This document shows positions 35,801 through 38,800 of a stretch of 64,000 nucleotides of DNA, one piece after another. The translations under genes were made by a program, and so were the position numbers. How positions within the stretch are numbered: position 1 is the stretch's first letter; every line of letters begins with the position of its first letter. This DNA is from Tubiluchus corallicola (taxonomy: Eukaryota; Animalia; Priapulida). The notes under the pieces are model-generated. The model did no database searches, had not been told where the DNA came from, and worked only from the letters and a program-made list of their open reading frames with translations. The DNA lies in NCBI GenBank assembly GCA_030141605.1, contig JAQGDQ010000219.1, positions 186,001 to 250,000 on the forward strand, in the 5' to 3' direction.

Positions 35801-38800
35801 TGTAATTGTAGAACTTACCTCATTTTAAGGTATAATCCTGAGATTTAAAGCTGAGTAAGCACTTATTGCAAATTCATCCGACAATTAATTTTTACATAAA
35901 TATAGCTAAACAGTTAAATACAGAAATTTTGTCAGCTTAGAATAACAGAATTTCTGAGCGCACTGCAGAAGCTTTGCTGTGTGTGCTTTCGTGCTGTCCA
36001 CTAGCTTACACATTTTTTTTACAAATATGCCCCTAGCGAGGTTCGTTTGGCAAGAGATAAGAATGATTTAAATTTCTTTTGAATTTTTAAGTAAAGTATT
36101 TTATGCGTGTATATTATGTGGTAATTTCAAAATGTTTAAGTCTATTTATACAAAATAAATGTTGTCTGAGGGCTGGTTTTTCCTTTAAATTTACCATGCT
36201 TTAGCATTATGCTTAGAATTTAAATGCATATCATATATAATGGTATAATGGTGTTATATTACAGATGAGCATAGCAGATAGAATAACAATATTAACTCTG
36301 TTCTTTCTCGGCATGCTAAGTTTCTTGGCGGAAGCACGATCATTCGGCAATTTGGAAGTACATACTCGAGACAATTGCGCAGACATCGACCTGTGTGAGA
36401 GATGTGCCCGTGAAACACATTCTAGGCAAGCGTTTCCAATGTGTTGCGCCCAACTATATGGAGTCCACGAATGGTGCGCCGAGTTCCTGAGCTTTGGAAA
36501 GTCACGTCGGTAGCACAAATGCATAAGGACCGATATTGCGGTTTATTTTTATTAAACGATTCAAATTATTTTTAAAAATTTCCTTAGAGCTTTGGAATTT
36601 TATAACTTTTGAGTGCACACGTCTAAGTTTTTTAACCTAGTTTTTTTACATCAATATAACAAAGAACTAAGTCTTCTACGTGACATATACTACAATTTCT
36701 TCGTATTTTGAGGTTGACACAAATTTTCAGTCAAGCAAAATTAACTATTACAATACTGAAATAATGACATACTTTTTTATTGTGTAGTTCTATTTTTAGG
36801 GATTTGTTTAGCATTTTTTGTTATACTCTTCCAACTACCTTACTAAGGTTGATTTACTTCAGTTACAAAAGTTAATATTTGACACGTGCTTAACAACTGT
36901 GCTCATGACTTTAGTTCAGGCCAAATGTGCTCAATTATCAAGCACTCTAATGACGTAATAAGGGATAATAAGATGTACTGCGTTCATTGGCAGAAATAGC
37001 AGCTTATTGCTGAAATAGTCTAAGCTGTTATATTTGACAAATGGCAATATAAGTCTGTTAAATAGCAGCATAACTAAGAGCATAGCTGGAAAACGTTTTT
37101 TGCCAATTGTATTTGCTTGCATAAAGCACAGTTTAGTTAGAATCAAAGGATTGTAAAGAAGAGCTCGCAATGAAGAGAGCCCTTTCTTAAAGAGGTTGTT
37201 GCAGTTATAAAAATATGTAAAAAACAAGGATTCGAAAATTATATTTGCACAGATTAAATGACACTAGACAAATTTTTTGTCTATGTTCCACTGTTACTTG
37301 TGTAAATTATATCATTATGCATGCTGAAATTTAAGGCTATTAAAATAAGTAAATGTTCAACTGAAATGCGAAGAGATTATTGTATCACTGATTCATTTTT
37401 GAGACAATATATGGTGTTGTTGCATCTGCTAACTGTTATTATGCCGCATTTACTATGCCCTTATTTAATTGCTTCAGGGTTAGCCATCCCTGTTGTTACC
37501 AGACTTCAAAAAATACACAACACGTATGCTCCTGATTAAAAGATAGAAAGAGACATGGACCCCAAGGTACAAGTAATATAAAGCTTCACAGTGAATATTT
37601 TCTCCAATTTACAATTTCTTTCTTGAGAGAGAATGTTTTAATGAAGATTTTTACATATCTATTAATACTTGAGCACAAAGAAGCTCAGTTCATACCAAGA
37701 TAATAACAAAAATATTTAAACACACCCAGTAGTAGCATGAGCATAACACAGTTTAATAAGTTAGTAACGTGTAAAAATGTCTTTGATTTTCACGCTTAAT
37801 TAAGACTAGTATTAGTGCCATTTTAATGCAGGCAGACTAATTACAAACTGTCTGTTGTTAAGAGCAAAATGTTTTTCTAGGAAAGCATGGGATTGACCTT
37901 TACGATTTTCTAAGAAATGAGTGGAAAATCTTTCAAACATATTGTTTTGCACAAGTTTTGACATTTTAGGCAGAAGATGGTGTGACAAAGGAGAGTGGTA
38001 CGGAAAGAAGGGGAGAGAAAGTGAGAAAGAGTGAGAGAGAAAGAGAGAGAGAGGGAGAGAGAGAATAGGAGAGAGAGAGAGAGGGAGAGAGAGAGAGGGA
38101 GAGAGAGAGAGAGAGAGGGAGAGAGGGAGGAGAGAGAGAGAGAGAGAGAGAGAGAGAGAGAGAGAGAGAGAGAGAGAGAGAGAGAGAGAGAGAGAGAGAG
38201 AGAGAGAGAGAGAGAGAGAGAGAGAGAGAGAGAGAGAGAGAGAGAGAGAGAGAGAGAGAGAGAGAGAGAGAGAGAGAGAGAGAGAGAGAGAGAGAACCAT
38301 AATGAGTCACTGGTTCTTTAATAAATTCTTCATCAGTCAAGTAAAATTGGTAAAATGACAAAAAAGTGATGAAAAATCAAATTGTTAATCACAGCTCGAA
38401 TTTCCCCTCAAACTTTAGCCTGATTTGTAATTAGAGCTGAAATTCAGAAAAAGTATATAGTTAGACGTGTAAAAATTAGATATAGTTTCTCAGATTCTTT
38501 AGGAAAAAATGGATAGGTGGCCTACATTTCTTTATAATGACTGAAGAAAACAAAGTAAAAAAAAGAATCTATCATGACTTTTGCACTGCATTTTTGCCAT
38601 TTTTTTGAAAAATGTGATGAACGAAGTATACATGTTACTGCACTACAAGTCTAAACTTTGCCTGTTCAAATCTTTCTTCATATACAAGTTTGCATTACAA
38701 AGACAAGCAGAACATATTATTGCTGTTCCTAAGAGATCAAGATTACTAAGAATAACACTTTGCTGAGCAATGATTGATATAAGGATGCAAATTACCACAG

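Follow-up and report, generated by a model that had tools for sequence, protein, structure and literature searches.

The SLPTX3 HAND toxins of centipede venom (k-SLPTX3-Ssm1a, PDB 2M35; mu-SLPTX3-Ssm2a/Ssm6a, PDB 2MUN and 2MZ4; SSD609) have cysteine gaps of 9-2-12-0-8 residues and disulfides joining cysteines 1-5, 2-4 and 3-6 (PMC7232367). They are described as recruits from the CHH/ITP peptides (PMC7560641, PMC13311285), and losing the terminal helix may have been a key step (PMC7560641). Members of the CHH/MIH/ITP family are secreted peptides with six conserved cysteines and a mature length of 72 to more than 80 residues (PMC7560641). A 64,000-nucleotide stretch of Tubiluchus corallicola DNA (contig JAQGDQ010000219.1, positions 186,001 to 250,000; hereafter the window) contains a gene for a shorter six-cysteine peptide, encoded in antisense within an intron of an ABCB half-transporter gene. 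It is an intact gene of a conserved, arthropod-wide family, almost all members of which are uncharacterised.

Family membership and distribution

The cysteines of the 82-residue product occupy positions 38, 44, 47, 60, 61 and 71, giving gaps of 5, 2, 12, 0 and 9. When the product (the query) was compared with 1.84 billion representative proteins by phmmer at a threshold of E<=0.001, 56 proteins were found, the best at 4.7e-13 (50% identity) and the next at 2.8e-10 (44%). A hidden Markov model (HMM) of 49 named arthropod cores, with the query left out, gave the query 55.5 bits, and the maximum among its cysteine-fixed shuffles (1,998 scored of 2,000) was 17.1 bits; the 49 members had originally been found with the query or a query-containing profile, and their selection is not independent. 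The phmmer E values and the HMM score far above the shuffles indicate that family membership is not due to chance. A word-index search with the query alone gave no match.

The preliminary description of this locus had suggested a conserved but undescribed peptide family, and the homologue search for conserved cysteine spacing bears this out: C-x2-C-x12-CC-x9-C is kept in 103 of the 104 stored sequences, a set in which the query and five near-duplicate cluster members are counted, and the single exception is incomplete. The gap between Cys1 and Cys2, five residues in the query, is nine in 64 of 103, and the family mode is 9-2-12-0-9. Tryptophan precedes Cys6 in 100 of 103, and 81 of 103 members have a hydrophobic N-terminus. 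Across the family the core is conserved and the pro-region variable. The signature, CAKxTKS..(Y/F)P.CC...WC..(Y/F)..(F/Y)G, matches the CxxCAK...YPMCC...WC core that the preliminary description had linked to uncharacterised invertebrate proteins.

A profile search yielded 52 proteins, 44 with a named organism, all of them insects and including Drosophila willistoni GK22162; apart from one labelled Reticulon-2, they are annotated as uncharacterised or hypothetical. A look-up of 30 clusters gave an organism for 13, namely 12 arthropods (flies, a beetle, a caddisfly, a wasp, two hemipterans, krill, Daphnia, two spiders and a mite) and one bacterium. Members are also known from lice. No mollusc, annelid, nematode or deuterostome was named among these clusters, 17 of which carry no organism. 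In a poorly resolved family tree (45 stored sequences, 50 columns), the query has a short end branch and stands with two other proteins (80/88, 94/92) outside the pancrustacean group. If the host is indeed a priapulid, the family is older than the arthropods.

Functional annotation is missing although the family spans flies, beetles, bugs, lice, crustaceans and spiders. The catalogue of arthropod neuropeptides, by contrast, is regarded as almost complete. In the ESM Atlas, the aligned portion of P0010, a homologue, carries PF28910 (Pfam 38.1, shown nameless), above the naming bar; the family has therefore already been catalogued computationally. It is undescribed in the literature searched, which excluded Undheim et al. 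2015, centipede venom phylogenies, FlyBase and most subscription journals. Six family motifs occurred in no searchable paper text, the term PF28910 not being included, and an oyster neuropeptide supplement held no PMCC, PLCC or FCC string, a weak result in a source that prints sequences in blocks of ten. Prior description as a signalling family under another name is a real, though minority, possibility.

Several arthropod gene calls (P0034, P0036, P0040, P0028, P0093 and P0096) lack Cys1 or carry a long insert before the core, a hint that an intron separates Cys1 from Cys2 in these genes; the gene in the window has none there. In a metagenome scan P0059 had two matches, in bacterial-type DNA, and among viral sequences P0055 had a single match of 10 residues; all were rejected as chance.

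Likeness to SLPTX3 toxins and to CHH/ITP peptides

The first reading of the sequence held that the cysteine spacing fits none of the insulin, CHH/ITP, eclosion hormone, trissin and knottin patterns. For CHH/ITP this is not supported: family profiles and modelled fold alike lead to the SLPTX3/HAND toxins and, less strongly, to the MIH/CHH peptides. Four family profiles were searched against 177,635 PDB sequences, and in three of the four k-Ssm1a was the top match (E 0.033, 0.014 and 0.026). Ssm6a appeared in two of the searches (E 3.4 and 2.9), and an unrelated C1-type domain in one (E 0.086).

The 42-residue core was modelled as three helices with high confidence (pLDDT 92.9). Compared with 48,161 structure chains using VIA-align, the model matched k-Ssm1a first (Z 5.5, root mean square deviation (rmsd) 2.2 over 41 residues), Ssm6a second (Z 4.5) and molt-inhibiting hormone (MIH) 1J0T third (Z 3.8, rmsd 2.6 over 42; MIH residues 16-59), unrelated chains beginning at Z 3.2. 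Ta1a and CHH-L 5XS1 gave Z 2.5 and 2.2. The full-length model had the same two leading matches. Foldseek returned 2MUN alone for the core, at a template modelling (TM) score of 0.71 (Z 5.6, rmsd 1.9 over 40). Of the structural follow-up proposed at the outset, the confident three-helix core was obtained, and the best Foldseek match reached only E 3.2. In ESM Atlas features, among clusters made up mainly of one named family, those of CHH and eclosion hormone came closest (0.87 and 0.82 for CHH, 0.77 and 0.80 for eclosion hormone, for two homologues); these values, all below 0.9, are leads only.

The toxins and the query product share the CxxC-x12-CC core, and both are short and all-helical, in the latter case by prediction. 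The outer cysteine gaps differ between the toxins and the query, with the family mode deviating from the toxin frame by one residue in the last gap, and identity is 17-20%. Whereas SLPTX3 peptides are centipede venom components, the six-cysteine family is conserved in non-venomous arthropods and has a signature of its own. With CHH/MIH/ITP (PF01147; 1J0T, 5XS1) the query product shares six cysteines, helicity and secretion (both predicted here) and CxxC-x12-C. The canonical CHH gaps are 15-2-12-3-8. The query product differs in its adjacent cysteines, in its three helices without the terminal helix and in its mature length of 42-56 residues. Ancestral CHH genes have two coding exons separated by a phase-2 intron (PMC10501145). 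On grounds of length, Pfam matches and gene structure, the query is not a canonical CHH/ITP member.

Taken singly, each score is weak for so small a helical protein. Since sequence and structure methods agree and the toxin cysteine gaps nearly equal the family mode, a relation of the family to CHH/HAND peptides is persuasive and very probable. The family, uncharacterised and widely conserved, probably forms a short branch of its own within the CHH/ITP superfamily, and its action may be hormone-like. A short body peptide with adjacent cysteines could be a simpler starting point for SLPTX3 than a trimmed CHH/ITP peptide. Such a peptide, bearing the toxins' cysteine frame, challenges helix loss from ITP/CHH as a key step in HAND toxin origin (PMC7560641).

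Predicted processing, proposed function and alternatives

The N-terminal hydrophobic stretch (Kyte-Doolittle peak 2.4) is the predicted signal peptide, and cleavage between A24 and R25 was inferred from the A-x-A pattern. No more than 56 residues follow the signal peptide. A further cut at Arg35, a monobasic site, is plausible and would not be family-wide: an Arg two to three residues upstream of Cys1 is also found in homologues P0002 and P0003, and 38 of 94 members have a basic residue at most four positions before Cys1. Disulfides C38-C61, C44-C60 and C47-C71 (1-5, 2-4, 3-6) are proposed by transfer from SLPTX3 and not from the model.

At the C-terminus, a terminal Gly-Lys and a 42-residue product ending in LSF-amide had been proposed. 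The tail, however, reads G-K-S-R-R, so that Gly-Lys is internal, and the amide end is doubtful because GKSRR is non-canonical and a canonical signal (Gly directly before a dibasic site or at the end of the precursor) occurs in only nine of 103 members. The query is not among the nine; its two nearest relatives are, with the tails GKRRR and GRR. The Gly following Phe77 is a family residue (79/103), often succeeded by Ile/Leu-Gln and the stop. Amidation is not family-defining, and its chance in the query peptide is judged slightly below even. With three disulfides, the computed monoisotopic masses are 4860.0 for a D36-F77 amide, 5133.2 for a D36-S80 free acid and 6000.6 for an S26-F77 amide.

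Gyc76C, a membrane guanylyl cyclase, is activated by ITP, and the eclosion hormone receptors belong to the same class; Gyc32E represents a second, protostome-only clade of these cyclases and is an orphan (PMC12611267). A conserved core with a drifting pro-region is the pattern reported for endogenous signalling peptides rather than toxins (PMC10501145), and the family has members in such non-venomous animals as Daphnia, krill, D. willistoni, beetles and lice. Because of this pattern in non-venomous animals, and of the receptor class of ITP and eclosion hormone, the reading favoured here, with some reserve, is that of a secreted three-disulfide hormone or neuropeptide from a short CHH/ITP branch that signals via a cell-surface guanylyl cyclase. 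That the peptide is an endogenous signal of some kind appears probable. The predicted signal peptide would be removed and the chain would adopt a three-helix fold like that of the SLPTX3 toxins and the MIH core. The disulfides 1-5, 2-4 and 3-6 would form, trimming would take place at both Arg35 and the basic tail, and the peptide would be released from neuroendocrine cells. Cyclic GMP signalling through a membrane guanylyl cyclase would follow, the analogous cases being ITP-Gyc76C and eclosion hormone.

A membrane guanylyl cyclase is proposed as the receptor tentatively and by that analogy. Gyc32E may serve as the first candidate, although an unlikely one. The six-cysteine peptide is nevertheless a concrete ligand to try on this orphan, and fruit-fly genetics opens a way to direct testing. 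The most far-reaching version, in which a CHH/ITP hormone branch extends from priapulid to Drosophila, supplies the ligand of a receptor such as Gyc32E, includes the body-gene ancestor of SLPTX3 and has a copy in an aphid symbiont, is rather improbable as a whole. If a hormone branch was the ancestor of SLPTX3, the toxins would have been recruited already short, and not by trimming ITP/CHH.

Several results weigh against the hormone reading. The SLPTX3 toxins were not found in the PDB with the nine-sequence profile A4, and the query alone had no PDB match at E<=10. All structure scores lie under the tool's reliable range for helical proteins, and the Foldseek E values are 3-9. The query matched neither PF01147 nor any other Pfam family at E<=10, in a Pfam copy without PF28910, and PF01147 is not among the families (25/35) listed for 57 members. 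The coding sequence lacks the phase-2 coding intron of ancestral CHH genes. The only grounds for the Gyc32E link are analogy and shared distribution. Finally, one member is bacterial and another bears a spider toxin name. P0032 (WP_072550586.1, AWK15146.1, MEA9443970.1) is recorded as a hypothetical protein in Candidatus Fukatsuia symbiotica, a bacterial symbiont of aphids, and P0055 (UniRef A0A4Q8K5N5), from a Liphistius spider, was deposited as U20-Liphistoxin-Lsp1a_1.

P0032 retains the full cysteine core and the hydrophobic N-terminus. It is present on four contigs, the longest of 2,824,008 bp; the closed chromosome of this bacterium, obtained from in vitro culture, measures 2,824,275 bp (PMC7145644). 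The passages of PMC7145644 drawn on do not mention a gene like P0032, and P0032 was not found in the genome contigs, viral contigs, phages and plasmids searched. P0032 would likely represent transfer from an arthropod to the bacterium; if the bacterial copy holds, an animal hormone-like gene resides in a heritable symbiont. P0055 groups with the chelicerate members and may be a body peptide rather than a toxin.

The alternative that survives best, though it too is improbable, is a secreted endogenous modulator with direct binding to ion channels or receptors of the animal itself. This would explain the recruitment of a derivative as a channel toxin, and the peptide shares its cysteine frame and predicted fold with peptides reported to act on Kv, KCNQ1/KCNE1 and, disputedly, Nav (PMC7232367). 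Other CHH-fold body peptides, however, are hormones that act via guanylyl cyclases or G-protein-coupled receptors (PMC13311285, PMC12611267).

About equally improbable is a genuine signalling peptide that resembles SLPTX3 and CHH by convergence, the small disulfide-tied three-helix shape having been reached independently. The weak scores (E 0.014-3.4, Z 3.8-5.6), the C1-type domain among the profile matches, the missing Pfam CHH match and the different gene structure all speak for this view. Yet profile search, Foldseek and VIA-align all put the same toxins first, and the cysteine gaps equal those of the toxins in three of five cases for the query and in four of five for the family mode.

A venom, salivary or defence peptide directed at the ion channels of another organism, as are the centipede SLPTX3 toxins, is a little less probable again. 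Toxins are the best sequence and structure matches, and both the deposited name of P0055 and the symbiont origin of P0032 accord with such a role. A toxin name taken from a venom-gland transcript is no demonstration of activity, however, and the core is strongly conserved across non-venomous lineages, the window holds one copy, and identity to the SLPTX3 toxins is low. That the window copy is silent or a recent pseudogene is very improbable: its promoter and first exon were not located and its coding sequence has no intron at the place suggested by some insect gene calls, but start, signal stretch, six cysteines and stop are intact, the tree branch is short and the copy is single.

The locus and comparison with other peptide families

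The features of the locus are collected in Table 1. The antisense position of the 82-residue open reading frame in an ABCB intron, as initially described, was confirmed: the translation is identical, the intron is bounded by a GT donor (41760) and an AG acceptor (23928), and the ABCB reading frame is unbroken across the junction. The peptide gene is almost certainly a real one. It is present as one copy in the window, and the GC content of the open reading frame is 47%, compared with 30-31% in the flanks.

Table 1. Coordinates of the peptide gene, its predicted parts and its host intron in the window
Feature	Position	Strand	Basis
Complete uninterrupted coding sequence, 82 residues and TAG stop	36265..36513	+	translation, homologues
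Predicted signal peptide, residues 1-24	36265..36336	+	hydropathy; model helix 3-25; A-x-A cleavage pattern
Short spacer, residues 25-35, ending in Arg35 as possible monobasic cleavage site	36337..36369	+	inferred
Predicted mature core D36-F77, six cysteines, three helices	36370..36495	+	model pLDDT 92.9, fold matches
Tail GKSRR; an F77-amide would need a cut at the single Lys; failing that, Arg trimming would leave a free ...FGKS end	36496..36510	+	
TTACAG immediately 5' of ATG, possible splice acceptor	36259..36264	+	sequence
ATTAAA, possible polyadenylation signal, 38 nt past the stop	36551..36556	+	motif in AT-rich DNA
ABCB half-transporter intron, 17,833 bp, enclosing the peptide gene in antisense	23928..41760	-	splice sites, frame

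The TTACAG before the ATG gives a mere hint of an upstream non-coding exon, because 22% of the 519 YAG sites in the intron score equally well by a simple pyrimidine score. Contigs of run X1, which is of unknown kind and has no bearing on expression, span 36435-36587 with two differences and no splice joint, and in run X2 the open reading frame has no coverage. At 35415-36219, 5' of the ATG, many divergent X1 contigs pile up, which suggests that the putative first intron contains dispersed repeats. The peptide gene is flanked by a (CT)n tract (34728-34893) and a (GA)n tract (38019-38184), 3.1 kb apart and 84% complementary over 166 nt, which are probably ordinary microsatellites.

The ABCB exons lie on the minus strand from ~47.2 kb down to 14.9 kb. 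The intronic location of the peptide gene looks incidental, no functional tie having been found. An additional N-terminal membrane region of the transporter, at 45715-47210 (-), has a weak match to the MENTAL domain (E 0.026, below the cut-off). A KLHL28-like BTB-BACK-Kelch gene is represented at 9114-10037 (-) and 314-649 (-), with 54-59% identity to KLHL28 of vertebrates, amphioxus and hemichordates; an exon tree of 17 rows, with no named protostome row, places it outside the vertebrate and hemichordate clades in an unresolved position. A FYVE-type zinc finger exon at 58583-58762 (+) presumably resembles ZFYVE21.

The agatoxin-like peptide has a knottin scaffold, unlike the six-cysteine core. 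This peptide, or CCWamide, is an earlier case in which the toxin came to be known ahead of the corresponding endogenous neuropeptide (PMC13311285). Three further groups were considered and set aside. The CCRFamide peptide of Carcinus has five cysteines, with gaps of 6, 3, 8 and 2, and an RFamide end (PMC6158917), and differs from the query in these respects. Marmite, or NPB-like, peptides contain a four-cysteine Marmite domain (bioRxiv 10.1101/2022.12.12.520095), as opposed to six cysteines here. For four of the five families of Doppelganger-related peptides (DREP; Triangle, CHH, Tail, Medial and Hairpin), one or two disulfides are stated (PMC10501145), again as opposed to six cysteines. The molluscan CHH DREP has two disulfides and 71 residues, directly follows its signal peptide and is encoded by two exons with a phase-2 intron, in all of which it differs from the query; it is nevertheless a divergent CHH-fold peptide whose best structural matches are likewise k-Ssm1a and SSD609 (PMC10501145).
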